From positions 36,167-100,166 of the forward strand of contig JAFGCI010000006.1 in the NCBI GenBank assembly GCA_016932735.1: a DNA stretch of 64,000 bases, given 5' to 3'. Position 1 is the stretch's first letter. Every line of letters starts with the position of its first letter. Below the pieces are notes generated by a model. It was not told the DNA's origin. It searched no databases and was given only the letters and a program-made list of their open reading frames with translations. A program made the translations under genes and the position numbers. The stretch comes from Candidatus Aenigmatarchaeota archaeon. Its GTDB lineage: Archaea; Aenigmatarchaeota; Aenigmatarchaeia; QMZP01; QMZT01. Of this stretch, positions 4,016-22,737 are shown piece after piece.

Positions 4016-4591
4016 TCAATATCTCACAATATTCACTTCTTTTCCTGAAAGATCAAAAACTCTCGACGGGAGGCCGTCAATCTCGCCGGCATCTATTGCT
4101 ATATCTGTCAGAGCCTTTATATCTTCCGGAAGCTCGCTTATCTTCTTTATCGGCTCTTCGCCGGAAAGGTTCGCGGAAGTGGTTACAAATGGTATTCCGG
4201 TTGTCCGGACAAGGTCTGTGAATTTGTTCAGCGGTATCCGGATTCCTATGGTTTTCTGTAATGAGACGAGTTCTTTCGGGGCTGAAGGCGTTGCCTTAAG
4301 TATCACTGTATAAGGTCCCGGAAGGAGTGATTTTACGAAAGCGAGATTCTCTTTCGTTCCCGTCGCGTTTTCCTCAATCCAGTCAAATGATGGAGCTATG
4401 ACTGACATCGGCTTTCCGGGGTCTCTCCCCTTTGCGTTCTTGATTCTCGAAACAGAGCCGGAATTGTTAGCATCGCATCCTATTCCGTAAACCGTGTCCG
4501 TCGGATAGACGAAAACCTTTCCGGCTTTTACCGACTCTATGATGTAATCCTTTTTAGAACCAAGGGCGTCACTGAGCCTTATTATTTCCAT
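4016..4591 (-). CDS. L-threonylcarbamoyladenylate synthase (TsaC/Sua5/YrdC family)
   Basis: The 'VFVYPTDTVYGIGCDA' motif and overall YrdC-domain pattern; 191 aa. Confidence 0.8.
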   Translation of the reverse strand: MEIIRLSDALGSKKDYIIESVKAGKVFVYPTDTVYGIGCDANNSGSVSRIKNAKGRDPGKPMSVIAPSFDWIEENATGTKENLAFVKSLLPGPYTVILKATPSAPKELVSLQKTIGIRIPLNKFTDLVRTTGIPFVTTSANLSGEEPIKKISELPEDIKALTDIAIDAGEIDGLPSRVFDLSGKEVNIVRY

Positions 4592-4641
4592 AATGTTATA
4601 TTGTCGATTCAGTATTTATTTATCAAATCGAATCTGATATT

Positions 4642-5673
4642 ATGTTTAATTTTATGCAGAGGCAGAAACGCCTAAAGGAAAGCATGAAGGAAGCCGGACT
4701 AGATTGTCTTATAGTTTCTGACAGAAAGGACATTTATTACCAGACAGGCTTCCTTCCGCTTGACGGCGATTTCGCTTTTCTTATATTCACCACAGAAAAA
4801 AGGCCGGAACTCTTCGTAAATCCGGTTTCCAACAGGGCGGAGAGCCTGAAAACAGCCGATACATGTTTCGTAAAGGATGTAAAAGAGATGGTCGGTAATG
4901 CAGGCTTATCGGGAACAATAGGATTCGATGAGAAGAGTTTGTCTGTCTCATCTTTTATGGATATATCAAAGCACCTGAGAAAGCATCGCCTGAAAAAGCC
5001 GTGCTCAGATTTAATCAGGTCGCAGAGAGCGGTAAAAGATGAAAGCGAAATATCGGAAATGGGAAATGCCGTGGCAGTTACTGAAAAGATTCTTTCCGAT
5101 GCCAGAGGCTATATGGAAGGAAAAAGAGAATTCAATATCGCGAAAAAAATCGAGAAGTCCATGCTCGAAAAACTCATGGAGAGATCCTTTGAGACCATCG
5201 TCGCTTCAGGAAAGAACTCATCTCTCATACATTACATTCCGGGCAAAGGTCTTATCGGGCAGAAGAGTCTTGTTGTCATTGACATGGGGATTATTTCCAA
5301 TAACTATTGCTCTGACATGACGAGAACATTTTGTCTGAAGCCCGGCCCGAAGGAGCAGAAGCTCCATGATAATATTCTTGAGGTTCAGGAAACTCTTATT
5401 GACAGAATCCATGAAGGCGTCCGCGTAGAGGAAATCAATAGAATCTATCAGGAAGAAATGGCAAAAAAAGGATATGCTGTCAATCATGGCTGGGGACATT
5501 CCATCGGACTGGACGTCCATGACCCCGGCTTTAAGGAATTCAGGAAGGGGATGGTCATAACAGTCGAGCCGGGCGCATACATCAAAGGGTTCGGAGGCTG
5601 TCGCATCGAGGATATGATTCTTGTTGGGAAGGCTAAAAGTAAGAAAATGACGAAAATGAAGAGTTCGCTTTAG
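4642..5673 (+). CDS. M24 family metallopeptidase (Xaa-Pro dipeptidase/aminopeptidase-like)
   Basis: Pita-bread fold signatures 'HGWGHSIGLDVHDPG', 'GMVITVEPGAYI' and 'GGCRIEDMILV'. Confidence 0.8.
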   Translation: MFNFMQRQKRLKESMKEAGLDCLIVSDRKDIYYQTGFLPLDGDFAFLIFTTEKRPELFVNPVSNRAESLKTADTCFVKDVKEMVGNAGLSGTIGFDEKSLSVSSFMDISKHLRKHRLKKPCSDLIRSQRAVKDESEISEMGNAVAVTEKILSDARGYMEGKREFNIAKKIEKSMLEKLMERSFETIVASGKNSSLIHYIPGKGLIGQKSLVVIDMGIISNNYCSDMTRTFCLKPGPKEQKLHDNILEVQETLIDRIHEGVRVEEINRIYQEEMAKKGYAVNHGWGHSIGLDVHDPGFKEFRKGMVITVEPGAYIKGFGGCRIEDMILVGKAKSKKMTKMKSSL

Positions 5674-5677
5674 AGTG

Positions 5678-6499
5678 TCAGAATCTCTGAAAGTATTTTA
5701 CAAGCTCATTTGCGAATTCCCTTTTTTTATCCGGAAAGGCATGAGTCCCATCAAATTCAATCGTTTTGACATTTGCCCCGAATTCTTCTAGTCTTCTGGA
5801 AAGCAGCCTTGAGTTGTGTATAGTCATTATTTCATCGCCTTTCGCCGAGATTGTAAGAACATTAAGTCCTGTCAAATCTGGCTCCATATCACTAAAGGGC
5901 GTCTGCATCGACATAAGATTAATTAGGCTGCTTGCAATCTGGTAATATCCTTCTCCTCTAAGGTCGTTATACCCGAAAACTGGCTTCAGTACGTTGCCAT
6001 CGAGAAAAAACCCTTTGCCGTTTTTGCTGTTATGAAGTTCCGGATGCTTGAAAGGTCTCTGAAACATGTTCAGAAGCCCCTTACGGATATCGGTTCCTCC
6101 GCATCCTATAGCCATGCAGGATATATAGTCCTTTATTTGTTCTGCAACTCTTGCCATTGGATAACTGCTCAGGCTGATTGCAGCAAACATTCTCTTTTTT
6201 CTTTCGGGGTTTCTTCTTGCATATCCAATCAGCTGTTCTTCATGGACTATGTGATCATATCTCCTGATGGGGTGGCGGCCATGCCCCGGCAGGAATATAT
6301 AAGTCACTCCTATTCCTTCTCTGTTTGCTGTTTCATGTAAATACTGAAAAGTTTCTTTTTGTGGGTTTTCCAGATCGTTTCCCACGCCTGCAGAAAAGAC
6401 TATCTCTGAATCATTATTTCCGTATCTTATGAAAGGGACTTCGTATCTTCTGGATTTTCTTCCGACTGAATATGTCCCTTCGGCTGCCTGTAAACTCAT
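5678..6499 (-). CDS. hypothetical protein (273 aa)
   Basis: Long ORF with coding-like composition. No family recognised from the sequence. Confidence 0.5.
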   Translation of the reverse strand: MSLQAAEGTYSVGRKSRRYEVPFIRYGNNDSEIVFSAGVGNDLENPQKETFQYLHETANREGIGVTYIFLPGHGRHPIRRYDHIVHEEQLIGYARRNPERKKRMFAAISLSSYPMARVAEQIKDYISCMAIGCGGTDIRKGLLNMFQRPFKHPELHNSKNGKGFFLDGNVLKPVFGYNDLRGEGYYQIASSLINLMSMQTPFSDMEPDLTGLNVLTISAKGDEIMTIHNSRLLSRRLEEFGANVKTIEFDGTHAFPDKKREFANELVKYFQRF

Positions 6500-6523
6500 A
6501 AGATTCTAATGAAAGAAAATTAT

Positions 6524-7351
6524 TTATTCAAGTATTACACGGTCAATCTTTGCGACTTGTGACTTGGTTTTTCCTAAACCTGAGAATTTGACTGATGAAG
6601 AACCTATCCCAACTATGCTTCCTTCGATTGCGAAGAAAACATTATCTCCCTTCTTTATTCCTGAATCGAAATCGCTGACATAATCCCCGATTATCGGTTT
6701 CCCGTTTCTTACGTCCTGCCCGTTTTCTTTTTTTATCGAAATCCTTTTTACCCCGACCTTCAGGAGGACATCCTCTATCTCAAGAAGATGAGCTTCAGGC
6801 TCCTTCTCCAGCCTTTCAAGCGTGACGGCCTCATCGACGCTGAATGGTCCTACTCCCGTCCTCCTGAGCCATGACATCTGCGCTCCGCTTCCGGCCTTTT
6901 CGCCCATGTCGTGGCAGATTTTTCTGATGTATGTTCCGGCCTCGCAGAGAATCCGGAAGGAAACCAATCTTCCGTTAGTTTCAAGGATTTCAAAGGAACG
7001 GACGATCCTTTCCCTTTCCTTTCTTGCGACTGCCGATTTCACAGGCGGAATCTGCTTTATTTTTCCGGTGAACTGTTTTGCAAGTTCTTTTACAGAATCT
7101 TCTGAAATATCTTCATGAAAAAGCATCTCGCCTTCATACTCCTTGTCCATTCCATTAAGGAGGGGCATACACTTCCTCGCTTCACCAAGAGCTATAAGAA
7201 GGAGTCCTGTGACGTTTGGGTCAAGCGTTCCTGCATGACCTGCCTTTTCTATTCCCAGAATTCTCGTGACTGATTCGACTACATCGAATGATGTCGGGCC
7301 TGCTGGTTTGTCTATTAGGACGACGGACTTTTGTAAATTCGCCATAACCAT
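6524..7351 (-). CDS. cbf5: tRNA/rRNA pseudouridine synthase Cbf5 (TruB family, with PUA domain)
   Basis: The 'GHAGTLDPNVTGLL' catalytic motif, N-terminal 'IDKPAGPTSFDVV' and a C-terminal PUA-like region. Confidence 0.85.
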   Translation of the reverse strand: MVMANLQKSVVLIDKPAGPTSFDVVESVTRILGIEKAGHAGTLDPNVTGLLLIALGEARKCMPLLNGMDKEYEGEMLFHEDISEDSVKELAKQFTGKIKQIPPVKSAVARKERERIVRSFEILETNGRLVSFRILCEAGTYIRKICHDMGEKAGSGAQMSWLRRTGVGPFSVDEAVTLERLEKEPEAHLLEIEDVLLKVGVKRISIKKENGQDVRNGKPIIGDYVSDFDSGIKKGDNVFFAIEGSIVGIGSSSVKFSGLGKTKSQVAKIDRVILE

Positions 7352-7383
7352 GAATTGTTTTATATCTTATTTAATTCCTTCAT

Positions 7384-8004
7384 CTAGAATACTTTCCTTT
7401 CAAAGAATGTTTCCACAGTATCCAATATTCGTTTTGATTCTCTCCGGAAATCGTCCCTCCTTTGAACGGTTTCGAATCTTTTCCCTTTTCTGCGGAGAAT
7501 CAGACTCCCGTATGCTTCTCTGGAGTATAATTCAATGCCTGAATATCTGGAAAGGAGAAGATAACCATCATCTGAAACCAGCCTTGAAACCTGCCCCAGT
7601 CTTTCTTCTGTCATCTCAGGTGTCATTATATGCATTGCTTGGAGAATGCCGTTCAGGAAGAAAACCGCCTTGAATCGTTTATCGGGGAAACTGTTTCTAT
7701 ACCCGTCCTGAACAGAATAAATTCCCTTCTTCCTGTTCCTTCTTGCAATCCATATGTTGCCGGGCATTATATCGATTCCCTCTGCATCATTGCCACAAGC
7801 ATATGATATCTCTTCGGTCGTCCTGCCCCCCGAGCATCCTATATCAAGAAGTCGTCTTCCTTCCACTCTTCTCGGATATATGTTACCTCCAAAAACCAGA
7901 CCGACTCTACCGTAAAAACTGAAATTACTGAGATGATATCCCGAACTTCTGTCATAATTTTCTCCGGATGTCTTTTTTGAAAACATGTTCAGTAGCATGT
8001 GCAT
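7384..8004 (-). CDS. class I SAM-dependent methyltransferase
   Basis: Motif I 'LLDIGCSGG' and overall Rossmann MTase pattern. Confidence 0.6.
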   Translation of the reverse strand: MHMLLNMFSKKTSGENYDRSSGYHLSNFSFYGRVGLVFGGNIYPRRVEGRRLLDIGCSGGRTTEEISYACGNDAEGIDIMPGNIWIARRNRKKGIYSVQDGYRNSFPDKRFKAVFFLNGILQAMHIMTPEMTEERLGQVSRLVSDDGYLLLSRYSGIELYSREAYGSLILRRKGKRFETVQRRDDFRRESKRILDTVETFFERKVF

Positions 8005-10324: not shown

Positions 10325-11272
10325 ATGAACAAAAAAGGAAGTTTAGCCTTAGCAGGAATCATTGCGGTGGTATTGATTCTTGCTGTAGGTTTGTTCGCAC
10401 TTGCACCGGCAACCAATGCGGCAAAACCGGAATGCTCAGATAAAATCGATAATGACGGCGACGGAAACGTGGACTATCCGGCAGACGCGGGTTGCACAAG
10501 CAAACAGGATAACGATGAATCCAACTGCGGAGACGGCGTCTGCGAAGGTGGGGAAACATGCGCTACATGTGTAGCAGACTGCGGACCATGCGATTCCTGC
10601 TCTGATACGGACGGAGGTATTACAATCACAACATTCGGGACAACATCAGGATACTACGGAGGCAGTTCTTACAGCAACGACGACTACTGCGTCGATTCAG
10701 GCAATGTAATGGAATACTATTGCAGCGGAGATTATGAGCAAAGTTCACAGCAGAGCTGCGGTACAGACGGCTATGGAGGACTTTACTGCGCTGCAGGCGA
10801 CGAAGTGTATAAGGATTACACAGACTACTTCTGCGCTTCAGGAAAATGCGACAGTGACGTAACTCCTGTATTCCAGGAAGACTGCGACGACAATGACGCA
10901 TATGGAGCCAATTACTGTCTGAACAATACAGTATTCAGGGATTACAGCAACTATTACTGCAGCAATGGTGCATGCGACTTCACAACAACTCCGGAATTCG
11001 TTGAAGCATGCGAGGAGCCATATGTATGCATGTACGGACAGTGCATGATGCCGAATTCATGCTCTGACACTGACGGAGGATTCGTACCACCCACTACAGG
11101 AACAGTAAGCGGATACTATATGGGAAGCCCTTACAGCAATACAGATTATTGCGCTGACAGCACGACACTGGTAGAATACTGGTGCGGAGGAATCTATGCA
11201 GGCAATAGTCAGGTATCTTGCTATGATCCCGGAAACTCCACAACGATGTGTTTAAATGGCGCATGTGTTTAA
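10325..11272 (+). CDS. secreted/membrane-anchored cysteine-rich protein with internal duplication
   Basis: N-terminal hydrophobic signal/anchor (LALAGIIAVVLILAVGLFALA). A 'DNDGDGNVDYPADAGC' stretch resembles a Ca-binding motif. More than 30 Cys. The module 'CSDTDGG...T(T/V)SGYY(G/M)GS.YSN.DYC.DS....EY(Y/W)C.G' occurs twice. Confidence 0.7.
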   Translation: MNKKGSLALAGIIAVVLILAVGLFALAPATNAAKPECSDKIDNDGDGNVDYPADAGCTSKQDNDESNCGDGVCEGGETCATCVADCGPCDSCSDTDGGITITTFGTTSGYYGGSSYSNDDYCVDSGNVMEYYCSGDYEQSSQQSCGTDGYGGLYCAAGDEVYKDYTDYFCASGKCDSDVTPVFQEDCDDNDAYGANYCLNNTVFRDYSNYYCSNGACDFTTTPEFVEACEEPYVCMYGQCMMPNSCSDTDGGFVPPTTGTVSGYYMGSPYSNTDYCADSTTLVEYWCGGIYAGNSQVSCYDPGNSTTMCLNGACV

Positions 11273-11365
11273 AATAAAACCATTTTTTCTTTTTTCTTTT
11301 AATGTTATCAAAATTTATTTCTGATTATCTTATCTTATTATCTGAAATGGCCGAAATGACCTTTT

Positions 11366-11956
11366 ATGATAAAGCAATATCAGGAATATCAGAACTTCGG
11401 AGAGCAGTATACTACGGCTTTGTCTCTGCTTGAGTCAAATCCTCGGAGCGGTGCAATCCTGTTTCTCAGGAACAGTCCTCTAGCAAATTTTTTCATGATT
11501 AGGAAAGGTCTTAAGGATGGGTATGATATTTCGCCGATAGCCGCCACGCATCCAATAACATATTACGAGTCGCAGATAATCGGAATGGATCCTGTTGATA
11601 TATTCCTGAGATATTTAAGAGGGGGCTTTACTGCTGAAGGAAATTCAGAAAACGCTGTTTTCGGCGACCGTGGTTTTGAGTGTCCAATAACGTGTTGCCG
11701 TTCCAAGAAAAGGGGATTCGAGGGGGACAAATTATACCTTAAAATAAGAAGAGGATTCACTCCGGAAAGAGGTCCTAAACTTCTTGGAGAAAAAAATAAA
11801 ATCTTCATAGAAAGCGCGACTCCTGAAGATGTCGAAGGCATTCTGGAGCTGGGGTGGACAAGAGTAGAGGACAATCATGCAGAAAGACAAACAAGGATGA
11901 TGTATCTTGAAAAGTATTTTCCGATCGCCAGAGAAAAGATAAAAATCTTCAGATGA
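11366..11956 (+). CDS. hypothetical protein (196 aa)
   Basis: ORF only. Confidence 0.5.
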   Translation: MIKQYQEYQNFGEQYTTALSLLESNPRSGAILFLRNSPLANFFMIRKGLKDGYDISPIAATHPITYYESQIIGMDPVDIFLRYLRGGFTAEGNSENAVFGDRGFECPITCCRSKKRGFEGDKLYLKIRRGFTPERGPKLLGEKNKIFIESATPEDVEGILELGWTRVEDNHAERQTRMMYLEKYFPIAREKIKIFR

Positions 11957-11958
11957 TG

Positions 11959-12411
11959 TCAGTCTCCGTGCAGGACTATCAGTGACTGTGTATTATCTAT
12001 CCCTTCTATCAGCTGAATCCTCTCCAGAAGTATCCTGTCATATTCCTCGACGTCCTTCGCCCTGACGAAAGCAATTATATCGGTTCCTCCCGAGACTATG
12101 TGAACCTTTTCGACATTTGGGATTCTGTTCAGCTCTTTCACCACATCATACTGGCTCATGTGTTTTTCTTTCAGGACCCGAAGGTTTGCCGAGATCAGAA
12201 TGTAAGCTGAGAATCCCCTGCCGGTTTTTTTGCTGTCAATATCAATCGTATATTTCCTTATCACACCCTCCTTTCTCAGAGACTTTATCCTGTTATGGAT
12301 TGTAGTCGGCGGAAGAAGGGTCTTCTTCGAAATCTGCCTTGTCGTGAATTCGCCATGCTCCTTTAAGACTTCAAGAATCTTCCTGTCCTTTTCATCTATT
12401 CTATATTCCAT
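11959..12411 (-). CDS. Lrp/AsnC family transcriptional regulator
   Basis: N-terminal HTH 'IDEKDRKILEVLKEHGEFTTRQISKKTLLPPTTIHNRIKSLRKEGVI' and a C-terminal RAM domain. Start set at the internal Met (MEYRIDEKD). Confidence 0.8.
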   Translation of the reverse strand: MEYRIDEKDRKILEVLKEHGEFTTRQISKKTLLPPTTIHNRIKSLRKEGVIRKYTIDIDSKKTGRGFSAYILISANLRVLKEKHMSQYDVVKELNRIPNVEKVHIVSGGTDIIAFVRAKDVEEYDRILLERIQLIEGIDNTQSLIVLHGD

Positions 12412-12516
12412 AATGGAATATATGTTCCATAATTTATTTAAATCTAACACGAAATGGAACTATTGTCCATATTTTATGGAATATGTTTATCTAATATACC
12501 GGATAATAACCTTCTC

Positions 12517-13047
12517 ATGTTCAGACTGCACCCGGAACAGGGTTATGTTCATGAGATTGCGGGCACGTATGAAATCAAGACTGATATGAGGTATCATACA
12601 GTTCCGACCAAAACATGCGACGAGAAGGCAGCCTTGCTGGGCTGGCCTTCCAGCCGTGTCGTTAAAGCACTTTATCTTTGTGATGGGAATGGTTATATTG
12701 GTTTAGTGACGCCTGAAACAGGACAGCCTATAGACTTCAGGGCTGTTCTCGCTGAAGGCCTCGGGATCACAAAGAACAAGGCAGGCAGATACAGGTTCAA
12801 CGGAACCCCGGCGGGAATGACATACGGGACCTGCACCCCTTTCATACTTGAATCAAGCGCGGGAAAACAGGTTTCTAAAATAATCATTGCCGACCCGTTC
12901 AGCCTGAAAGATACTGTTGTTGACATATCCGTCGGCGGGGAAACCGATGATGCATTCCTGACATCCATGCACATTCCATACGATGCCATACATGAGATAC
13001 TTTACAGGAAGTTCGGAGAGGGTTTTGTGAAAAAACAAGAGCAGTAA
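12517..13047 (+). CDS. YbaK/ProX-like aminoacyl-tRNA deacylase domain protein (tentative)
   Basis: Pattern resembles YbaK ('GTPAGMTYGTCTPF', 'IIIADPFS', 'DISVGGETD'). Start uncertain; the ORF track begins at 12454. Confidence 0.45.
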   Translation: MFRLHPEQGYVHEIAGTYEIKTDMRYHTVPTKTCDEKAALLGWPSSRVVKALYLCDGNGYIGLVTPETGQPIDFRAVLAEGLGITKNKAGRYRFNGTPAGMTYGTCTPFILESSAGKQVSKIIIADPFSLKDTVVDISVGGETDDAFLTSMHIPYDAIHEILYRKFGEGFVKKQEQ

Positions 13048-13116
13048 AACTTACTCTTTCTTACCTATTTCTCTAATTATATTTTCAAAAATCCAAATGT
13101 TTATAAAGGTGCTAGA

Positions 13117-13164
13117 ACAACAATATATTGTTAAATTCTGGGGGGAAGACACAACATATTGTGT
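13117..13164. promoter_or_regulatory. two tandem NrdR-box-like palindromes upstream of nrdR-nrdD
   Basis: The first box is acaacaatatattgtt at 13117-13132; it contains the perfect 14-bp palindrome aacaatatattgtt. The second is acacaacatattgtgt at 13149-13164. The second matches 15/16 of the consensus acaCwAtATaTwGtgt as I remember it. The box centres are 32 bp apart. An archaeal TATA-like tttataaa sits at 13100-13108. Confidence 0.6.
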
Positions 13165-13207
13165 TTTTTCATTCCTAAGTAACACAAATCATTTTTCTGG
13201 TGTTAGC

Positions 13208-13672
13208 ATGAAGTGTCCATATTGTTCCAGTCAGGAATCGAAGGTCGTTGACAAGAGAACTTCCGAGACTTCTGATGCTATCAGAAGACGAAGAGAATGC
13301 CTGAAATGCGAGAATCGGTTCACTACTTTTGAGCGCGTTGAAAGGGGAGACCTCCGCGTCGTCAAAAAGGACGGAAGAAGGGAGCAGTTCGACCGCCAGA
13401 AACTCCTTGCAGGAATTAACAAGGCATGCGAAAAACGACCGGTGACGGCGGAGCAGATTGATGATATTGTTGATAAGATTGAAGCCGACCTCAGGAAGAA
13501 GGGGGAACAGGAAATACCAACCACAACAATCGGCAACACTATAATGAAGCATCTCAAGAAGCTGGATAAGGTCGCATACATCAGGTTCGCTTCTGTCTAC
13601 AAGGACTTCGCGGACCTTGAGGACTTCGGCCGCGAAGTCGATAAATTGATAAAAAGGCCTGCATCGCAGTAG
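13208..13672 (+). CDS. nrdR: transcriptional repressor NrdR (zinc ribbon + ATP-cone)
   Basis: 'MKCPYCSSQESKVVDKR...CLKCENRFTTFERVE' zinc ribbon followed by an ATP-cone ('VVKKDGRREQFDRQKLLAGINKAC'). Start taken at the internal ATG at 13208 (MKCPYC). Confidence 0.85.
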   Translation: MKCPYCSSQESKVVDKRTSETSDAIRRRRECLKCENRFTTFERVERGDLRVVKKDGRREQFDRQKLLAGINKACEKRPVTAEQIDDIVDKIEADLRKKGEQEIPTTTIGNTIMKHLKKLDKVAYIRFASVYKDFADLEDFGREVDKLIKRPASQ

Positions 13673-13682
13673 CGATCGGGGA

Positions 13683-15791
13683 TTGGAATTGAGATTAAAT
13701 AAGAGAAAATACATTGAGAGGGAGAGGAAAATGGGACTTGAAAAAATCAAGAAAAGGGACGACAGGATTGTTAAATTCGATAATGATAAAATAAAGAACG
13801 CGATAATGAAGGCTGTCAAGGCGGTCGGCGGCAAGGACGAGAAATCCGCCGAACAGCTTGCAACCCAGGTCATAACGCTTCTTAAGAGAAAATTCAGGGA
13901 CCAGATTCCTTCTGTTGAAGATGTCCAGGACATGGTCGAGAAGGTCCTGATAGAGAACGGCCATGCAAAAACGGCGAAGGCTTTCATACTATACAGGGAG
14001 CAGAGAGCCGCTGTCAGGGATGTCAAGAAGCTTTTATCGGACACTGAGATTGTTGATGATTACCTCAAGGAAACGGACTGGCAGGTCAGGGAGAACTCTA
14101 ACATGAGCTACTCTCTTCAGGGATTGAACTCCCATCTGTCATCCCAGATAATATCAAATTACTGGATGAGCAAGTTATATCCGAGGGAAATTCAGGAAGC
14201 CCACAGGACAGGGGATTTCCACATTCATGACCTCGGCGTCCTCGGCGCATACTGCGTCGGGTGGGACCTCCGCGACCTTCTCATTTCAGGATTCAAGGGA
14301 GTCCGCGGAAAGATTGAGTGCAGGCCGCCCAAACATTTCCGCGTGGCGCTTGGGCAGATTGTGAATTTCTTTTATACACTGCAGGGAGAAGCCGCGGGAG
14401 CGCAGGCTTTCTCGAACTTCGATACATATCTTTCGCCTTTCATCAGGGCGGACAACCTTGATTTTAAGCAGGTCAAACAGACACTCCAGGAATTTATCTT
14501 CAACATAAACGTCCCTACCAGAGTTGGATTCCAGACACCTTTCACCAACATAACGCTTGATCTGATCGTCCCCGCTAACATAAAAGATGATGCAGTGATA
14601 ATCGGCGGGAAGATGACCGAGACGACCTATGGGGACTATCAGAAAGAGATGGACGTCTTCAATGAGGCCTTTGCCGAGGTCATGATGGAAGGAGACGCCT
14701 CCGGAAGGGTCTTCACATTTCCCATACCGACTTACAACATCACAAAGGACTTCGACTGGGACAGCCCCAAGTACAAGGGCATTTGGGAAATGACTGCAAA
14801 ATACGGAATACCGTATTTCTCGAACTTCATAAATTCCGACATGAAGCCGGAGGATGCAAGGTCTATGTGCTGCCGCCTCAGGCTTGACAACAGGGAACTG
14901 CGAAAAAGGGGCGGAGGCTTATTCGGAGCCAACCCATTAACAGGCTCAATCGGCGTCGTGACAATAAACATGCCGAGGCTCGGTTTCCTTTCAAGGAACG
15001 AGAAAGAATTCTTCGCAAGGCTCGACAGCCTCATGGACCTTGCAAAGGAGAGCCTTGAGATAAAGAGGAAAATAATAGAGAGCTTCACTGACAAGGGCCT
15101 TTATCCATACTCAAAATTCTACCTGAGGGCGACAAAGGATGCGACCGGGTCCTACTGGACTAACCATTTCTCGACAATCGGTCTGGTCGGCCTGAACGAG
15201 GCCGTCATGAATTTCATGGATGCTAACATCGCAGATGAGAATGCAAGGAAATTCGCCATCAAAGTGCTTGAGTACATGAGAGAAAGAATATCGGGTTATC
15301 AGGAGGCGACAGGCCATATATACAATCTGGAGGCTACGCCGGGAGAAGGAACTTCCCACAGGCTTGCAAGGCTCGATAAGAAGCTCCATCCTGAAATTGT
15401 CGTTGCCAATGAATACAATGTAAGGAAGTTTGGAGCTGCTCCTTACTATACGAACTCAAGCCAGCTTCCTGTCAATTACACGGATGACATTTTCACAGCG
15501 CTTGACCTGCAGGAAGAGCTTCAGACAAAATACACAGGAGGGACGGTCCTCCACGGTTTTGTCGGGGAGAGAATGCCGTCGCCTGAGGCAACGAAGATGC
15601 TCGTGAAAAAGATTGCGGAGAACTACAAGATACCGTACTTTACGATAACGCCGACATTCTCGATATGTCCGAAGCACGGATATCTTGCAGGCGAGCACAA
15701 GTTTTGTCCGAAGTGCGACGAAGAGATTGGATATGTGAAAAAACCGGTTGCTGCCAGCGAGCCCGTCAGGGCAGTGGCAGAAGTCAAATAA
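13683..15791 (+). CDS. nrdD: anaerobic ribonucleoside-triphosphate reductase (class III, NrdD) large part, lacking the glycyl-radical motif
   Basis: N-terminal ATP-cone (KRDDRIVKFDNDKIKNAIMKAV), a central class III core (CCRLRLD) and C-terminal Zn site 'CPKHGYLAGEHKFCPKC'. There is no RVxGY glycyl radical motif before the TAA at 15789-15791. Confidence 0.9.
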   Translation: MELRLNKRKYIERERKMGLEKIKKRDDRIVKFDNDKIKNAIMKAVKAVGGKDEKSAEQLATQVITLLKRKFRDQIPSVEDVQDMVEKVLIENGHAKTAKAFILYREQRAAVRDVKKLLSDTEIVDDYLKETDWQVRENSNMSYSLQGLNSHLSSQIISNYWMSKLYPREIQEAHRTGDFHIHDLGVLGAYCVGWDLRDLLISGFKGVRGKIECRPPKHFRVALGQIVNFFYTLQGEAAGAQAFSNFDTYLSPFIRADNLDFKQVKQTLQEFIFNINVPTRVGFQTPFTNITLDLIVPANIKDDAVIIGGKMTETTYGDYQKEMDVFNEAFAEVMMEGDASGRVFTFPIPTYNITKDFDWDSPKYKGIWEMTAKYGIPYFSNFINSDMKPEDARSMCCRLRLDNRELRKRGGGLFGANPLTGSIGVVTINMPRLGFLSRNEKEFFARLDSLMDLAKESLEIKRKIIESFTDKGLYPYSKFYLRATKDATGSYWTNHFSTIGLVGLNEAVMNFMDANIADENARKFAIKVLEYMRERISGYQEATGHIYNLEATPGEGTSHRLARLDKKLHPEIVVANEYNVRKFGAAPYYTNSSQLPVNYTDDIFTALDLQEELQTKYTGGTVLHGFVGERMPSPEATKMLVKKIAENYKIPYFTITPTFSICPKHGYLAGEHKFCPKCDEEIGYVKKPVAASEPVRAVAEVK

Positions 15792-15805
15792 GGCAAGGTG
15801 ATAAT

Positions 15806-15955
15806 ATGGAAAAAGAAATAACTGAAGAAATGAGAACTAAATGCGAGGTCTTCTCGCGTGTTGTCGGTTACTTAAGGCCGGTCGACCAGTGGCACGACGG
15901 CAAGCAGGCAGAGTTCAGTGACAGAGTGACCTTTGATAAGCAGATAGAGAAGTGA
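15806..15955 (+). CDS. stand-alone NrdD C-terminal glycyl-radical domain (49 aa)
   Basis: MEKEITEEMRTKCEVFSRVVGYLRPVDQWHDGKQAEFSDRVTF contains the glycyl radical motif RVVGY and the NrdD C-terminal pattern N/D-x-G-K-x-x-E-x-x-D-R-V. It has its own SD (aaggtga) and ATG 14 nt after the nrdD stop, in a different frame. Confidence 0.6.
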   Translation: MEKEITEEMRTKCEVFSRVVGYLRPVDQWHDGKQAEFSDRVTFDKQIEK

Positions 15956-15960
15956 CTCTA

Positions 15961-16647
15961 ATGAATATCGGGGGGTTTGTCAAGAACACGCTAATAGACT
16001 ATCCGGGAAAGATGTCGTGCATCATATTCACACAGGGATGTTCTTTCCGCTGTCCCTTCTGCCAGAACAAAGAGCTGGTTGACGTCCCCGATGATGCAGA
16101 ATCCATAAAGGAGTCATACATCTTTTCATTTCTCAAAAAAAGAAAAGGCTTGCTTGATGCGGTTGTAATAACCGGAGGAGAGCCGACACTTCAAAAAGAC
16201 CTTCCCGATTTCATAAGGAAAGTCAGGGAGCTTGGATTTCTCATCAAGCTCGATACCAACGGATGGGCTCCTGAAATTCTTGAAAGGTTGTTAAAAGAGA
16301 ACCTAATCGATTTTGTTGCAATGGACATCAAGGCTTCAAAGGATAATTATGAGAAGGCGGCAGGCGTCAAAGTAAATATATATAATATAGAGAAGTCAAT
16401 CCGCCTTATACGTTCATCAGGACTCCCATACGAATTCAGGACGACTGTCGTCCCCGGAATCCACGATAAAGACGACATCAGGAAAATGGCTCAGTGGATT
16501 GAAGGCTCAAACCTCTTCCTGCAGAAGTTCGTCCCTCAGAACACGCTTGACCCCGAATACGAAAAGAAGAATCCATTCACTAACAAGGAAATGGAAGAGA
16601 TGAAAAAGATTGCGGGGCAGTTTGTGAATTGTGGGCTGAGAGCTTAA
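15961..16647 (+). CDS. nrdG: anaerobic RNR activating enzyme NrdG (radical SAM)
   Basis: The 'GCSFRCPFCQN' CxxxCxxC cluster and 'VVITGGEPTLQ'. An alternative GTG start at 15952 overlaps the stop of the preceding small ORF. Confidence 0.8.
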   Translation: MNIGGFVKNTLIDYPGKMSCIIFTQGCSFRCPFCQNKELVDVPDDAESIKESYIFSFLKKRKGLLDAVVITGGEPTLQKDLPDFIRKVRELGFLIKLDTNGWAPEILERLLKENLIDFVAMDIKASKDNYEKAAGVKVNIYNIEKSIRLIRSSGLPYEFRTTVVPGIHDKDDIRKMAQWIEGSNLFLQKFVPQNTLDPEYEKKNPFTNKEMEEMKKIAGQFVNCGLRA

Positions 16648-16810: not shown

Positions 16811-17683
16811 ATGCCGAAAAGAAATATGTTGTGGATTTCATTTGCTGTCATTTTTTTGATTTCATTTAGTGGGTGTATCCAACAAAACACGAAAGAAAAT
16901 GCAGAATCAATCGCACAGGAATTTGCTATAAATTTACAAAAATCAGACTATGAAAGCTTATATGATTTATTCATACCTGATCTCAAAAGCATGAGAAAAA
17001 AATCAGATTTCGTTAAATATGTGAATATAAAAGGATCGCCACTTGATAACAATTATATAATTTTTGACAAAGTCGTAATGCAGGGAGATAATGAAGCTTA
17101 TGCATATTATACGTTATCAAGTGGCATATTTGAGGCTAAAGTTCCTCCTATGCATTTGATTTTTACGTCGGAAGGTTGGCGTGTTGACGCATTTTCAGAT
17201 TACTTTTCTGCTGGATGCATCATAGATGATGACTGTTCAGCAGATTATCCTCGGTGTAGCAAAAATTTAGAATGTGTAAAATGTGTAAGTGATGCAGATT
17301 GCTCCGATTCGGGAAAGAAGCATTGTGATAGTGTTCTTAATATCTGTCATGAATGTATAGAAGATTACCATTGTCCCAAAGATAAACCAATATGCTATGG
17401 GTTTAGTTGTATTGAATGTAGGAAAAATTCAGATTGCCCAACAGAAACTCCATATTGTAATTATGTGTTAGGCAGTGGTTATGTTTGCAATAATAATCCT
17501 ACCGGGATAGAATGTATAGAGGATGTAGATTGTATCGTACTTTATGGAACAAAAAAGATGTATTGTAATGCGAATGGAAAGTATATTAGATTTACTCACG
17601 AGGATGAATGCATTTATTGCAGAGACGAATCAGACTGTCCTAGAGGAAAAGATTATTGCATTTCAGGTGAATTCTGTGTCTAA
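16811..17683 (+). CDS. putative lipoprotein with C-terminal cysteine-rich repeats
   Basis: Signal and lipobox-like 'FLISFSGC'. The C-terminal half has four 'C-x2-C-x3-5-DC-x5-8-C' repeats (e.g. CVKCVSDADCSDSGKKHC, CIECRKNSDCPTETPYC). Confidence 0.6.
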   Translation: MPKRNMLWISFAVIFLISFSGCIQQNTKENAESIAQEFAINLQKSDYESLYDLFIPDLKSMRKKSDFVKYVNIKGSPLDNNYIIFDKVVMQGDNEAYAYYTLSSGIFEAKVPPMHLIFTSEGWRVDAFSDYFSAGCIIDDDCSADYPRCSKNLECVKCVSDADCSDSGKKHCDSVLNICHECIEDYHCPKDKPICYGFSCIECRKNSDCPTETPYCNYVLGSGYVCNNNPTGIECIEDVDCIVLYGTKKMYCNANGKYIRFTHEDECIYCRDESDCPRGKDYCISGEFCV

Positions 17684-18104
17684 ACTTGGATATAGTGAAG
17701 ATGATAAAAGAAAACACCTTGAGTTTATTCAGTTGGCTATAAACAGAATGGCGGCTAATTCATTTATCCTAAAAGGTTGGAATATTACACTTGTTGTAGG
17801 TCTATTTGCTGTTTCAATAACAAAAAACCAAAATCTTTTTTTAATACTTGCTTTATTACCGGCCATTGCTTTCTGGGGTTTGGATTCATATTATCTGAGA
17901 AAAGAAAAACTGTTTCGTGAACTGTATAACTTTGTAAGGATGAGAGATAAGAGTCTAATAGATCCTTATTCATTGGAGACAAAGGAATTTGAGAAAAATA
18001 TCAAAAGTTGGTTTCATATACTATTTTCACGAACCGTGATAGTATTACATGGCCCCATAATTATATTTATTTTATGTTTTTCTATGATTCTATGGGGTGG
18101 TTAA
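17676..18104 (+). CDS. small 2-3 TM membrane protein (SLATT-like candidate effector), partner of the TIR-like protein
   Basis: It has an N-terminal amphipathic helix (DDKRKHLEFIQLAINRMAANSF). Three hydrophobic segments follow: 'WNITLVVGLFAVSI', 'LFLILALLPAIAFWGL' and C-terminal 'VIVLHGPIIIFILCFSMILWGG'. The stop TAA at 18102-18104 lies 2 nt before the TIR start. Start uncertain (GTG 17676 or ATG 17748). Confidence 0.5.
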   Translation: MSKLGYSEDDKRKHLEFIQLAINRMAANSFILKGWNITLVVGLFAVSITKNQNLFLILALLPAIAFWGLDSYYLRKEKLFRELYNFVRMRDKSLIDPYSLETKEFEKNIKSWFHILFSRTVIVLHGPIIIFILCFSMILWGG

Positions 18105-18106
18105 AT

Positions 18107-18598
18107 ATGGCAAGAAAAGTATTTTTCAGTTTTCATTATGAAAAGGATGCATGGAGAGCTGGACAGGTTAGAAATAGTAATGTCGTGCGTTCAGAAGATA
18201 CTACTGGATTCATAGATGCATCTGAATGGGAGAAAGTTAAAGAGAGAGGACAAGATGCAATTAAGAACTGGATTAATGAACAATTAAAAGGTACTTCGAT
18301 CACAGTAGTTCTAATTGGAAGTGAAACATCTGAAAGGGATTGGGTTAAATACGAACTTCAGAGAAGTTATGAAAAAGGAAATGCCTTTTTGGGGATATTC
18401 ATACATAATCTTGAAGATCAAGAAAAAAGAACAACGTCAAAGGGGGATACCCGATTTGGTGAATTAGGAAAAGATTCTGAAGGTAAATCTGTCTATTTAT
18501 TCCAACTCGCTAAGTTTTACGATTGGAAAAATGATGATGGTTACAACAATTTTACAAAATGGATTGAAGAAGCTATCTCAAACCAAAATGGAAACTAA
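18107..18598 (+). CDS. TIR-like domain protein (DUF1863 / ThsB-like)
   Basis: 'MARKVFFSFHYEKDAWRAGQVRN...ITVVLIGSETSERDWVKYELQRSYEKGNAFLGIFIH' carries the FFSFHY-x-D signature and the 'VLIGSET..R.WV.YE' pattern of Thoeris ThsB-type TIR domains. 163 aa from ATG 18107. Confidence 0.75.
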   Translation: MARKVFFSFHYEKDAWRAGQVRNSNVVRSEDTTGFIDASEWEKVKERGQDAIKNWINEQLKGTSITVVLIGSETSERDWVKYELQRSYEKGNAFLGIFIHNLEDQEKRTTSKGDTRFGELGKDSEGKSVYLFQLAKFYDWKNDDGYNNFTKWIEEAISNQNGN

Positions 18599-18975
18599 CT
18601 CTTCTTATACCCAAACTTCTTCTCATAATCCCTGTGGTTCATGATATCTAATATCAAAGAAATAATCTCGACTTCGTTGCCTCTTATAGTATATATCATT
18701 CTCCATGCTCCCGAAAGGTTGATTTTCCACAGGTTGTTTACATCATAATTTTTGATATATTCTTTTGGTGTTCTGTCTTTCGGGATATGAATTCCATATT
18801 GCGGGTTATCTCTTAACAACTCGATTTTCTGTTTAATAGAGTTAAGAAGCGTTTGGTGGTCACTGTTAGTAATACCCTTGGAAATCTCTTCGCCTACGAG
18901 TTTGTTCAAATCATCAAACTCTTCTTTAGCTTCTCCGGTAATAATGACTTTGGTGATCTTTCCTTTGAACATCAC
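18595..18975 (-). CDS. RelE/ParE-family type II toxin
   Basis: C-terminal 'NLWKINLSGAWRMIYTIRGNEVEIISLILDIMNHRDY' matches the RelE/YoeB-fold pattern. A 4-nt ATGA overlap links it to the upstream ORF. Confidence 0.7.
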   Translation of the reverse strand: MMFKGKITKVIITGEAKEEFDDLNKLVGEEISKGITNSDHQTLLNSIKQKIELLRDNPQYGIHIPKDRTPKEYIKNYDVNNLWKINLSGAWRMIYTIRGNEVEIISLILDIMNHRDYEKKFGYKKS

Positions 18976-19244
18976 AACTCAACTCCCTCTTTTATCGCCT
19001 TGTCAAGTTTCGGGCTGGGATTGTATATCCATAAAATTCCTTTCCTGCCGTCAATTATTTTACCGCTGTTCTCTAAATAGCTTAATATGACATTCAGCGT
19101 TTGGTGCATTATTTTTACAGGCAGTTTTTTCTTTATATCTTCCCGTGTCATTAATTCATTTGATTCCTTTAGAACTTCTTCTACCATTAACACAGTCTTC
19201 AGATTCGGGTAATGAATGACCTCGGCTTTTTGCATACAAAACAC
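18972..19244 (-). CDS. putative cognate antitoxin (90 aa)
   Basis: Upstream of the RelE-like gene on the minus strand and overlapping it by 4 nt. No antitoxin family recognised. Confidence 0.45.
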   Translation of the reverse strand: MFCMQKAEVIHYPNLKTVLMVEEVLKESNELMTREDIKKKLPVKIMHQTLNVILSYLENSGKIIDGRKGILWIYNPSPKLDKAIKEGVEL

Positions 19245-19312: not shown

Positions 19313-19634
19313 CAATAACTTTGCGAGTTGGTTAGCTGTGAAGTGAAAAATCTACTCTCGCCTTCGGCTCGGTTTCCCTGCGGTCAACGAGAAAAACAGG
19401 AAATATGCGGGAAAACTATACAAAGTTGTTGAATTTTCCCCAAATTTCAGCTTCGCTGAAACTATCGCATATTTCCATCGGTTATGCTCAATTGCGAATC
19501 CGCCTCTGGCGAGGTTACCATAGAAAATTCTCTTGTTGTTGCCTTCGTTAAAATTCACAAAACGAAAAAATAACGAAATTGCTTTGCAAATCGTCTAACA
19601 AAATTTTAACGAAATTTTTTCTTATCTTTAACAA

Positions 19635-19645
19635 GGGTTGCCGCC
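19635..19645. repeat. inverted repeat gggttgccgcc (preceded by ttttttctt) bounding cassette 2
   Basis: Reverse complement of ggcggcaaccc at 20990-21000, which is followed by aaaagaaaaaa. Confidence 0.6.
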
Positions 19646-19646
19646 T

Positions 19647-20468
19647 TTACTTATCTTTCTCAATCAATACAAATAACATTAGAAGAAGCATAGTAGACCT
19701 TTGTTCATTATCATAGTTAATCTCTCTTCCATGTAAAATTGGGTGTCTGAAATCCTTTGAATAAACATTACTTTTAGTATGCTCGCCGAATTTTGAAGAA
19801 TTATTAAAAATTTTTATAATTAGTTCTCCCAGCGAACATTCTATTGGTTTTCCATTTTTCCCTAAAATTAAATTCCCTTTAACATCTATCAGATTTTTGC
19901 TATTAAATTTATTCTCGATTAATCCTTGATTAATTCCAATATCCCAAAGTATACCTTCAATTTGCGATAACAAAAGAGGAATAGAGCTTATATAATCCTT
20001 ATTTTTATGATGCTGAATAGCCTTTTCTAAAATCTTTTCTCTTGCTTTAATAATCTTATCCGTTCTTACCTTTGAAATCAATTCATTCAATAACTTGTCA
20101 TCTTCAAAATCAGATATTAGTTGTTTCCATACTTCTTCTTTTCCGCTCGCTTTAAGCTTATCCTTGAGTTCAGAAGCGTAAGACATTGATATTGCTTCAA
20201 TCCACCCAAATTCTTTAAGAAATTCTTCCCAGCCTTTGAAATCAAAATTTTTTGCTATCTCAGTAAGAGGTTTTAATGATTGTGCAATTGATTGAGATAG
20301 TAATTGCATTCTTTTAAATGGTTCAGTAAGTGCTTCCATTTGTGCCTGAAATTGCAGATTGAATAATTGAATTGGTGCCAGAGAAATAGAAATTTTATCA
20401 TGAAGTTCTTTCATTATTTTGTTTATTTGATCCAGATTATTCATTTGTATCATCTTCAAGTTCTTCAT
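19647..20468 (-). CDS. hypothetical protein with C-terminal HEPN-like Rx4H motif (candidate Abi-like nuclease)
   Basis: 273 aa, AT-rich. 'SKDFRHPILHGREI' fits R-x4-H. Lies 18 nt downstream of the SHOCT gene on the same strand. Confidence 0.45.
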   Translation of the reverse strand: MKNLKMIQMNNLDQINKIMKELHDKISISLAPIQLFNLQFQAQMEALTEPFKRMQLLSQSIAQSLKPLTEIAKNFDFKGWEEFLKEFGWIEAISMSYASELKDKLKASGKEEVWKQLISDFEDDKLLNELISKVRTDKIIKAREKILEKAIQHHKNKDYISSIPLLLSQIEGILWDIGINQGLIENKFNSKNLIDVKGNLILGKNGKPIECSLGELIIKIFNNSSKFGEHTKSNVYSKDFRHPILHGREINYDNEQRSTMLLLMLFVLIEKDK

Positions 20469-20486
20469 TGTCCATTTAAGACAGAA

Positions 20487-20942
20487 TTATAATCCAAGCA
20501 ATTTTTTCTTTTTTTGCTCAAATTCTTTTTGAGTTATAACTCCTTTCTTCATTAAACTATATAATTTCTCTATCTCATCTGCATCGCTAGAAGTAGATTT
20601 TTCTGAAGAACTATTTGCTTTCTCAATGTGTTCTTTTATTTCAAGAGCCTTTTCGTAATTATCTTTACCATTGAACGAAACCGTATTTTCATCACTTACT
20701 GCATTAAAAACGCCACCTCTAGCCTCAATACCTCCTGGCAAGGAAAATTGAATATATCCTGCGGTAAACCCTGGTTTTTTAATCTGAATTGAGGTTATAT
20801 TTTTGAAGTAAATATCTTTCTTTCCTTTTAACCCATGAATCATGAAACCCATTGCTGTTCCTCTATCTAGCCTAACAAATTTTTCATAAAGTTCTATTCT
20901 TCCATTTGTTCCTTTGAATTCAATTATTGGTTTTTGTTCCAT
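20487..20942 (-). CDS. SHOCT-domain protein with N-terminal bPH/DUF4429-like domain
   Basis: C-terminal 'EIEKLYSLMKKGVITQKEFEQKKKKLLGL' is a typical SHOCT motif. Start set at the internal MEQKPIIEF. Confidence 0.6.
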   Translation of the reverse strand: MEQKPIIEFKGTNGRIELYEKFVRLDRGTAMGFMIHGLKGKKDIYFKNITSIQIKKPGFTAGYIQFSLPGGIEARGGVFNAVSDENTVSFNGKDNYEKALEIKEHIEKANSSSEKSTSSDADEIEKLYSLMKKGVITQKEFEQKKKKLLGL

Positions 20943-20989
20943 GATAACACTATTATATCTAAGGAATTTATAAATTCTTCTAATTGAAC

Positions 20990-21000
20990 GGCGGCAACCC
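20990..21000. repeat. inverted repeat ggcggcaaccc (partner of 19635-19645)
   Basis: See the partner repeat. Confidence 0.6.
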
Positions 21001-21251
21001 CCAAAAGAAAAAACTACGGCAACAACGAATTTTCGGCGGACTCGCAACTCGAAATTTTTGCCTTCGGCATTGTTGCACTAAAATTTCGTCCTAACGGAGA
21101 GCATAACAGGGCTTAACCGACTACGAAACCTTGCAGGTTTCTCCGACCCAAATTTTTTCTTCAGCTCTGTTCCGCTTCGCTCCACGAGGAAGAAAAAACT
21201 TCCCTTAAGCCCGATGTTATACGCAGTTTCTATAACTAAAAAACAAGTCTC

Positions 21252-21676: not shown

Positions 21677-22315
21677 TTATTTATCAGGAAGCCTGTTTCT
21701 TGTATTCCTTTCTACCTGCTTCTTGTAGCCGTAATCGACTTTCTTTGCTGTTGCGAAAAGGGCCGCCGGTATAGCGAATATTCCGATTGCGCTTTTCCAC
21801 GCGGCTTCCTGAACGGTTTTGGGCGGTTCTTTTAAGAAATAATTGGCCGTTGCCCCGACTGCGGCAGCTTCTGCAATCATGCCGGCTGGGTGCAAAATCC
21901 TTCTGGATGTGGTTTTGAACTTCCTCCTCACATGCTGTCCAAATCTTCTGAAATGGCTGTCATAATTGAAATTGCTCCTTCCTGTAATCCTCTTCCTGCT
22001 CTCGCTGTAATTGAAATACACGCGTCCCGTCTTGCCTGAGTCGTTGTTTGTGACGTAAGCAACACCATCATAAGAATCCGTTTTGTTGGTTCTTGCCCTG
22101 AATTTTTTATCTCCTGTAGCTATTTCTATAGTGCCAATACTGTAATCAACGCCAATCTTTCGTCTTGGGACAAGGCTGTTCCTTAGTTTGGTATAAATTG
22201 CAGAATGCTGATATCCTTTTAACCTGCTGGTTTGCTTCTTCGGGTCAAGATATACACTCTTCATTATTTCACCAATTACGAGTATTTTGTCACCAAATCT
22301 TATAAAACTAACCAC
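21677..22315 (-). CDS. hypothetical protein (212 aa)
   Basis: The ORF ends 4 nt downstream of the tRNA-Lys 3' end. Confidence 0.45.
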   Translation of the reverse strand: MVSFIRFGDKILVIGEIMKSVYLDPKKQTSRLKGYQHSAIYTKLRNSLVPRRKIGVDYSIGTIEIATGDKKFRARTNKTDSYDGVAYVTNNDSGKTGRVYFNYSESRKRITGRSNFNYDSHFRRFGQHVRRKFKTTSRRILHPAGMIAEAAAVGATANYFLKEPPKTVQEAAWKSAIGIFAIPAALFATAKKVDYGYKKQVERNTRNRLPDK

Positions 22316-22341
22316 TATAGAATGATAATTGGTGTGGTTTT

Positions 22342-22737
22342 ATGGCAGAGCTGTATTTGCATAAGATTCCTGCAGGAACAAGCAAAAGGATAGGCGGTGT
22401 AGTTTATTCTTTTAAAAAAGATTTTGTGATTCAAAGCACTTCAAGGAACATTGCTCAATCCCCGGGAAGCCCCCATTACGCGCGCTTCACCTTGGAGTCG
22501 GGAACCGTCATAGATGCGACAGGAAGAATCCCTGAAGATTGCCATGTTTATGTTACAGGGAAGGTGTTTGAAACATATAGAAGGCTTAGCAAAAAGAAGA
22601 AGAGGGCCGGAGAGAGTCCGTTTAAGATGGGTAATGAAGAAAGGATGGACTTAATGGAACTCTCTGAAATCGTCAACGAGGAGAAAGTCCGTAAAAAACC
22701 CGGAATCTGGAGATTGTTTCCGGTTATCGATTTCTGA
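22342..22737 (+). CDS. hypothetical protein (131 aa)
   Basis: ORF only. Confidence 0.4.
   Translation: MAELYLHKIPAGTSKRIGGVVYSFKKDFVIQSTSRNIAQSPGSPHYARFTLESGTVIDATGRIPEDCHVYVTGKVFETYRRLSKKKKRAGESPFKMGNEERMDLMELSEIVNEEKVRKKPGIWRLFPVIDF

Follow-up and report, generated by a model that had tools for sequence, protein, structure and literature searches.

A HEPN-like protein family found in type I restriction-modification operons and its copy behind a DUF4429-SHOCT gene in an Aenigmatarchaeota contig

HEPN RNases are central to prokaryotic immunity and include Cas13, Csm6, the abortive infection (Abi) proteins, PrrC and RnlA. The analysis presented here concerns two adjacent genes in a 64,000-nt stretch of contig JAFGCI010000006.1 from Candidatus Aenigmatarchaeota archaeon, hereafter called the window, where a DUF4429-SHOCT gene (gene A) stands directly upstream of a gene for a HEPN-like protein (gene B). 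The explanation favored as a whole, at a probability of about 0.6, is that gene B encodes a second-line defense effector of the HEPN superfamily and of the RNase type, present in the window as an orphan copy, and that gene A is incidental to it.

HEPN domains are defined as a four-helix up-down bundle, built from two alpha-hairpins, whose Rx4-6H motif closes helix 3 or falls in the loop to helix 4 (Anantharaman et al. 2013, PMC3710099). Further hallmarks are N, D, or H after the arginine, additional sequence inserted after helix 2 and before helix 3, and a conserved acidic position within helix 2, which typically takes the form Ex3[KR] (PMC3710099). At least 16 HEPN clades are linked to restriction-modification (R-M) systems, and a PrrC-like second-line defense has been proposed for them (Anantharaman et al., PMC3710099). 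An R-M-linked HEPN effector is thus an already known kind of system, while the gene B family itself matches no model in Pfam, NCBIfam, or PADLOC.

The R-M-linked solo HEPN Abi proteins (Abi2/AbiD/AbiF, AbiU2, AbiJ, and ApeA-like proteins; PMC3710099) resemble the gene B protein in being single polypeptides with an intact R[NH]xxxH. Members of both groups are often located in R-M operons or defense islands and carry a variable N-terminal region before the C-terminal HEPN core. However, gene B matches none of the Pfam models of these families and has extra invariant residues of its own (R143, H154, Q169-x-E171-G172, and G247), and its family, known here from sequence, belongs mainly to DPANN, other uncultured archaea, and metagenomes. 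With PrrC/EcoprrI, an anticodon nuclease guarded by a type Ic R-M system, gene B shares a C-terminal HEPN-type Rx4H domain and a proposed role as a latent RNase behind restriction, and its homologues, like prrC, lie inside hsdR/hsdM/hsdS operons. In contrast to PrrC, gene B is only about 270 aa long and lacks the N-terminal ABC-ATPase. Furthermore, the copy in the window is not beside R-M genes, and an activation by anti-restriction factors would be conjectural. The HEPN-MNT toxin-antitoxin (TA) systems of types II and VII (SO_3166/SO_3165; PDB 5yep, 7ae2, and 8xdj) differ from gene B. No nucleotidyltransferase gene is near gene B, where the upstream gene instead encodes a PH-like/SHOCT protein, and the gene B protein is twice as long, with an additional helical subdomain and a beta-rich insert.

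Gene B, its family, and its genomic contexts

The open reading frames (ORFs) of both genes are as a sequence-only reading had described them. Both lie on the minus strand and are separated by exactly 18 nt (20469-20486) if gene B starts at ATG 20468. The NCBI record of protein JW716_03905 (265 aa; from a Candidatus Aenigmarchaeota metagenome-assembled genome), which is 100% identical to gene B, starts at M9 (ATG 20444; 265 aa), as do the closest homologues. M9 is the probable true start, in which case the gap between the genes is 42 nt. The AT-rich 273-aa product carries the sequence DFRHPILHGR near its C terminus, as was also correctly read, at residues 239-248.

This stretch contains the sole Rx4H of the protein, which has a total of 6 R and 6 H. 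From this composition approximately 0.13 such motifs are expected by chance (arithmetic from the R and H counts), and a single occurrence taken alone could be fortuitous. Its invariance in 159 of 159 homologues is not due to chance. For these counts, 163 collected family sequences were aligned to the domain profile, and 159 of them cover the Rx4H site. R241, H246, and G247 were present in all 159, while the residue after R241 was N in 78, H in 64, as in the window protein, and another residue in 17, giving the family consensus RNxILHGR. In helix 2, both E/D171 and G172 were found in 161/161 sequences; R143 (158/161) and H154 (154/161) were nearly as constant.

A word-indexed search with gene B returned 25 relatives. 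When 1.84 billion cluster representatives were searched exhaustively with a profile, 2,524 matched at an E value of ≤1e-3 and 465 at ≤1e-10. Among named genome matches, the family was found in Aenigmarchaeota, Woesearchaeota, and Undinarchaeota (DPANN), in Bathyarchaeia, and in one bacterium; a scan of viral contigs found no relative. Gene B itself had no match in Pfam or PADLOC at E ≤ 1, none in NCBIfam, and no meaningful one in PHROGs. For 50 diverse family members there was no Pfam match at E ≤ 0.01, no NCBIfam match, and no consistent PADLOC match. Gene B is a member of a large family that is matched by no Pfam, NCBIfam, or PADLOC model searched. The weak matches to phrog_28904 (E = 0.0013) and lp1_17_inhib (E = 0.0011), both far below threshold, were rejected as representing the family.

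The full-length AlphaFold model of gene B was confident from residue 72 onwards and poor for residues 1-71, which distant relatives replace with other, longer N-terminal extensions. For residues 72-273, a domain model from 28 diverse sequences reached a predicted local distance difference test (pLDDT) value of 94.4 and a predicted template modeling score (pTM) of 0.89. In this predicted model the core is a four-helix up-down bundle of two alpha-hairpins, R241-x4-H246 sits between helix 226-235 and helix 255-272, and a beta-rich insert (approximately residues 181-212) separates helix 159-180 from helix 213-235. The residue following the arginine is typically polar across the family. Homology to HEPN proteins is considered well supported and very probable because the core topology, the position of the Rx4H motif, the polar +1 residue, and the insert that separates helix 2 from helix 3 fit the published definition (PMC3710099), and helix 2 carries a conserved acid, though not in the usual Ex3[K/R] form. 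The proposal of the sequence-only reading that gene B is HEPN-like was thereby strengthened, as such a fold was predicted and the Rx4H motif is invariant in homologues.

The neighborhoods were counted for closer relatives (≥40% identity) with readable neighbors, which gave 13 distinct loci. In 9 of these, the gene B homologue lies within a type I R-M operon, and in most cases the stop codon of one gene overlaps the start codon of the next. The gene orders were HsdR-B-HsdS-HsdM (L008 and L031), HsdR-B-HsdS-x-HsdM (L009), HsdM-(SLFN/AlbA_2-HATPase_c_4)-...-B-...-HsdS (L006/7 and L012-14/L028), HsdM-B-HsdS (L017, from Undinarchaeota), HsdM-B-(416-aa ORF)-(508-aa ORF)-HsdR (L025), HsdM-B (L029), and B-HsdS (L030). 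Such embedding among hsd genes is classic for HEPN proteins. Elsewhere, the homologue adjoins a PLDc_2 nuclease-like gene (L010/11 and L018/L050) or an OLD-like TOPRIM gene (L042), lies upstream of an SNF2 helicase (L020), or stands alone (L003 and L034-L038).

The SLFN/AlbA_2-HATPase_c_4 gene between hsdM and the gene B homologue encodes 446 to 447 aa with a winged helix-turn-helix (wHTH) domain in addition (L006/L007, 4661-6004; L012, 1969-3309; L013, 477-1817; L028, 2869-4215). A SWIM zinc-finger protein is a further additional gene in L013/L014, and these are multi-passenger R-M operons. In L003/L004 (L003, 3781-7793), the gene B homologue P0003 is convergent with a pair consisting of an AAA_15/AAA_23 ATPase gene and a Metallophos gene. 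Approximately 3.5 kb from P0003 are the genes for a different SHOCT protein (184 aa) and a 101-aa wHTH protein, located by a tyrosine recombinase.

Gene A, the sister locus, and the conserved flanks

The assignment of gene A as a protein ending in a SHOCT motif after a DUF4429-like domain was upheld, with both domains scoring above the Pfam gathering cut-offs. DUF4429 (PF14472) matched residues 21-104 with 30.9 bits (cut-off 25; E = 4.2e-7) and SHOCT (PF09851) matched residues 122-149 with 34.0 bits (cut-off 27; E = 2.2e-8); the C-terminal end reads ...EIEKLYSLMKKGVITQKEFEQKKKKLLGL / ...LYSLMKKGVITQKEFEQKKKKLLGL. Gene A also matches phrog_2700 (E = 1.3e-17) and has no match in PADLOC-DB v2 at E ≤ 1. 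It is a typical full-length member of the phage and prophage DUF4429-SHOCT proteins (PF14472 plus PF09851; phrog_2700), with 79 homologues from metagenomic and viral sources at 36 to 92% identity and numerous invariant positions in its PH-like region. At least 141 family matches were confirmed in IMG/VR. The family is highly conserved and largely (pro)virus-borne. The published SHOCT study gave no functional assignment, and its oligomerization test was negative.

Gene A differs from its relatives in location, as it lies in a chromosomal defense island before a HEPN-like gene, whereas the others are in viral or mobile regions, often directly upstream of a tape-measure gene. The three metagenomic relatives with the best contexts were all in mobile-element or virus-like regions, with an MNT pair, Mom, DUF5131, or GINS-like genes as neighbors. 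In IMG/VR, the genes downstream of the family were heterogeneous, and the sole recurrent one was the tape-measure gene, at 9 of 38 loci (7 non-redundant). The general statement that SHOCT proteins frequently accompany defense or toxin genes thus found no support in this family.

In the tape-measure loci (L058, L063, L076, L080-L083, L086, and L089), the DUF4429-SHOCT gene is directly upstream of a gene matching TMP_2, TMP_3, or PhageMin_Tail, at around 4000-7400 in each. The slot just upstream of a tape-measure gene is normally occupied by tail assembly chaperones. Many of the other IMG/VR copies lie less than 4 kb from the end of a viral contig. The closest relative of gene A on a long contig (L053, 4008-5459; 88% identity) comes immediately after an NTP_transf_2/Polbeta gene and a gene for a 137-aa protein, an order resembling that of MNT-HEPN systems. 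The 137-aa gene was considered as a seed for a profile of known HEPN proteins and was dropped since it had no Pfam or PDB match.

The pairing of genes A and B was not found to recur. No DUF4429-SHOCT neighbor was present in approximately 40 other distinct loci of the gene B family. Conversely, no member of the gene B family was present in the 3 metagenomic gene A loci, even at E ≤ 10, or within 4 kb of 53 near-full-length gene A ORFs in IMG/VR, again even at E ≤ 10. Among the approximately 40 gene B loci and the 56 SHOCT family loci, the pair was seen in this window only. Since the pair does not recur at these loci and the neighbors of gene A relatives are variable, the claim of a conserved two-gene module fails. 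The earlier suggestion of an abortive-infection module therefore stands in part, as a defense or Abi role fits the R-M operon, PLD-nuclease, and island contexts of gene B, while the pair of SHOCT and HEPN genes is not conserved. The pairing is probably incidental, although the two genes may be co-transcribed. The element TTTATAAA upstream of gene A was read as a candidate promoter of a leaderless gene A transcript, a call that leans on established knowledge of archaeal promoters.

A sister locus was found on a Woesearchaeota-labeled contig (L001/L015). Window positions 20425-19481, covering gene B and approximately 170 nt downstream, align to L001 2000-2948 with 85% identity over 949 nt, and positions 21090-20987, upstream of the first gene, align to L001 1012-1114. 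Between the aligned blocks there was no identity, the window having the DUF4429-SHOCT gene and L001 a gene for a 271-aa TPR/Zn-ribbon protein. The slot in front of gene B is deduced to be variable because L001, which has gene B and both flanks in common with the window, carries another first gene.

The two-gene unit is bracketed by an 11-nt perfect inverted repeat, GGGTTGCCGCC, with arms at 19635-19645 and 20990-21000, the only two copies in the window. This repeat is present at both the window locus and L001. A core, TTGCGAATCCGCC, at 19492-19504 has an inverted copy at 21033-21045, and inverted copies of the core TTGCGARTCCGCC are located farther out than the 11-nt repeat at both loci. Further partial copies of the flanks were found at L001 6924-6996, L003 73-118, and L023 529-567. 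Long terminal inverted repeats were rejected as an explanation, as the local alignment scores of the flanks (48 inverted and 56 direct) were within the shuffled controls (37 ± 6.6; maximum, 63). A search for structured RNA in the flanks gave no Rfam match (best E value, approximately 0.4) and folding z-scores near 0. The flanks are possibly a cassette boundary, a miniature inverted-repeat transposable element-like repeat, or a regulatory site. A 20-nt GC-rich unit, GCCTTCGGC..., recurs in four loose copies (70 to 75% identity) over both flanks, at 19360-19379, 19502-19521, 21060-21079, and 21157-21176.

Proposed function and competing explanations

By analogy with characterized HEPN enzymes, the gene B protein is most likely a metal-independent endoribonuclease in which H246 would act as the general base, assisted by R241, N/H242, and E171. 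Like other HEPN RNases it would form a homodimer, and the active site would probably be completed across the dimer. The usual home of the family is the type I R-M operon, with coupling of translation to hsdR, hsdM, or hsdS, or else a position beside other defense nucleases. Because of this genomic context, the most likely role is presumed to be that of a second-line effector of the abortive-infection type, which would be kept dormant in the absence of infection and set free once a virus has knocked out or swamped the first line of defense, as in PrrC/EcoprrI. For the operon-embedded relatives, release would presumably follow inhibition of the R-M complex. The copy in the window may be controlled by its N-terminal region or, conceivably, by gene A. 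It would be an orphan in a low-GC, horizontally acquired defense island, beside PDC-M50 (ThsB-like TIR) and RelE/ParE-like pairs, and gene A would be a virus-type accessory gene occupying the variable slot before gene B, perhaps co-transcribed with it but not a conserved functional partner.

Several observations weigh against this interpretation. The residue at +4 from the helix-2 acid E/D171 is W, G, or A rather than the K or R of the usual HEPN form. Neither gene B nor, in Pfam, 50 family members matched a named HEPN family by sequence or by profile, and profiles A1 and A3 gave no relevant match among PDB sequences. With the gene B model, Foldseek found nothing significant in PDB (best E value, 1.8), the top two hits being LsoA and Csm6. 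The more distant family members are surrounded by unannotated genes. Finally, the window contains no Hsd genes, and the guard-type regulation proposed for the R-M-embedded homologues has no obvious counterpart here. The lack of significance against HEPN proteins by either hidden Markov model (HMM) or Foldseek would also be expected if gene B were not a HEPN homologue but an unrelated helical bundle that uses R-x4-H-G for other chemistry or for structure only. This was judged very improbable, as four secondary hallmarks (where the motif sits, the polar residue after R, the insert separating helix 2 from helix 3, and the helix-2 acid) coincide in gene B and the genomic contexts of its family are typical of HEPN proteins. 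A non-nuclease role within the HEPN superfamily was considered as well. The gene B protein would then be an accessory subunit of type I R-M systems, that is, a regulator binding nucleotides, nucleic acid, or Hsd proteins, and the window copy would be a remnant of a lost R-M operon. At 9 loci the gene is wedged tightly, with overlaps, between hsdR and hsdS or hsdM, which is consistent with such a subunit, non-catalytic binding HEPN domains are numerous (PMC3710099), and no toxin-neutralizing partner of gene B is evident. However, Rx4-6H is typically lost in non-catalytic HEPN domains (PMC3710099), whereas the gene B family, which also occurs away from R-M genes (this window, L001, L003, L010, L018, and L034-L042), keeps R, H, a polar +1 residue, and the acid of helix 2 essentially invariant. 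We therefore regard a non-catalytic subunit as a decidedly poor prospect.

The arrangement of the locus itself raises the question of a two-gene system in which the DUF4429-SHOCT protein is a sensor, antitoxin, or regulator of the HEPN toxin and its slot is exchangeable, as in the partner swapping of TA and Abi systems. Genes A and B are on the same strand 18 to 42 nt apart, both have extremely low G+C, a single TATA-like element lies upstream of gene A, and the same conserved flanks and 11-nt inverted repeat enclose both genes. Moreover, on L001 the other gene in the equivalent slot is only 4 nt from gene B, and in several loci gene B is distal to a variable upstream gene (PLDc_2, SLFN-like, or HsdR/M). 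These points have to be set against the uniqueness of the pair among the gene B and SHOCT loci, which the proposed check of gene-pair conservation brought out, the gene B homologues without any partner (L003 and L034-L038), and a SHOCT family that has no fixed neighbor and only the tape-measure gene as a recurrent one. Nothing in experiments or in the literature was found to connect DUF4429-SHOCT proteins with toxin control. A dedicated sensor or antitoxin is accordingly unlikely, although the variable slot keeps the idea of exchangeable partners alive at low probability; simple gene replacement fits the variable slot equally well. A more specific proposal, that gene B and the conserved flanks are a small mobile DPANN defense cassette with an exchangeable front slot and that the captured PH-SHOCT protein is a sensor or decoy coupling a viral cue (e.g., a tail-assembly or tape-measure-related interaction) to RNase activation, is more doubtful still.

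The analysis adds a sizeable family, very probably of HEPN type (2,524 representative clusters), its motif invariant in every sequence examined, that Pfam, NCBIfam, and PADLOC have missed. Type I R-M operons repeatedly carry the family, most notably in DPANN and further uncultured archaea, whose defense repertoires are poorly charted, and an HMM for the family would improve the annotation of defense systems. At approximately 265 aa, the protein would be a compact candidate for examining whether restriction in archaea is backed by a latent RNase.

The low-GC island and other features of the window

The low-GC island extends from approximately 16.6 to 21.0 kb, with a G+C of 0.28-0.37 against 0.42-0.51 outside, and lies between nrdR-nrdD-nrdG (13097-16647) and rpoH/rpoB (22952 onward). 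The lowest G+C of the region, 0.28-0.31, is that of genes A and B. Coordinates are collected in Table 1.

Table 1. Positions of genes, protein regions, and flanking elements in the window
Feature	Position	Strand	Description
Gene A	20487-20942	-	ATG 20942; 151 aa; DUF4429 (PH-like) plus C-terminal SHOCT
Gene B	19647-20468	-	ATG 20468; 273 aa; large HEPN-like family without a model
Variable N-terminal region of gene B, residues 1-71	20256-20468	-	Long predicted helix of low confidence, pLDDT 37-48
Helical N-subdomain of gene B, residues 72-139	20052-20255	-	Motif FGW.E..S..YA; pLDDT 89-98; conserved in closer relatives only (alignments A1 and A3)
HEPN-like four-helix core of gene B, residues 140-273	19650-20051	-	Predicted: helix 1 (R143, H154); helix 2 (Q169, E171, G172, D176); beta-rich insert; kinked helix 3; Rx4H; helix 4
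Rx4H motif, R241-H-P-I-L-H246, then G247 R248	19731-19748	-	Predicted RNase active-site residues
TATA-box-like element (archaeal), TTTATAAA	20967-20974	-	25-32 nt upstream of the gene A ATG; candidate, read from the sequence
Conserved non-coding flank upstream of gene A	20987-21115	.	93% over 104 nt to L001 1012-1114; following gene different
Conserved non-coding flank downstream of gene B	19481-19646	.	88% over 174 nt (window 19481-19650) to L001 2775-2948
PDC-M50A match	17544-18104	+	PADLOC E = 1.6e-43, from residue 53
ThsB-like TIR/PDC-M50B match	18110-18598	+	PADLOC E = 8.7e-64; Pfam ThsB_TIR E = 1.8e-25
RelE/ParE-like toxin ORF (126 aa) and small upstream ORF (90 aa)	18595-19244	-	4-nt overlap; probable type II TA pair

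The PDC-M50 pair of adjacent genes corresponds to a candidate system of PADLOC. The 126-aa ORF is just under the curated cut-offs (ParE_toxin, 21.7 bits versus 23; TIGR02385, 25.8 versus 27.9), and the 90-aa ORF upstream of it has a weak AbiEi-like match; the two are probably a type II TA pair. No tRNA genes were found at the island borders, and no integrase was found among the ORFs scanned with Pfam to the left of the island (10325-16647). Unannotated ORFs occupy 21677-22737 between the island and rpoH. A 290-aa ORF at 16811-17683 on the plus strand, which has no Pfam match, combines an N-terminal hydrophobic, lipobox-like segment with a very Cys-rich C-terminal half, and it overlaps at its 3' end with the longer form of the PDC-M50A ORF.

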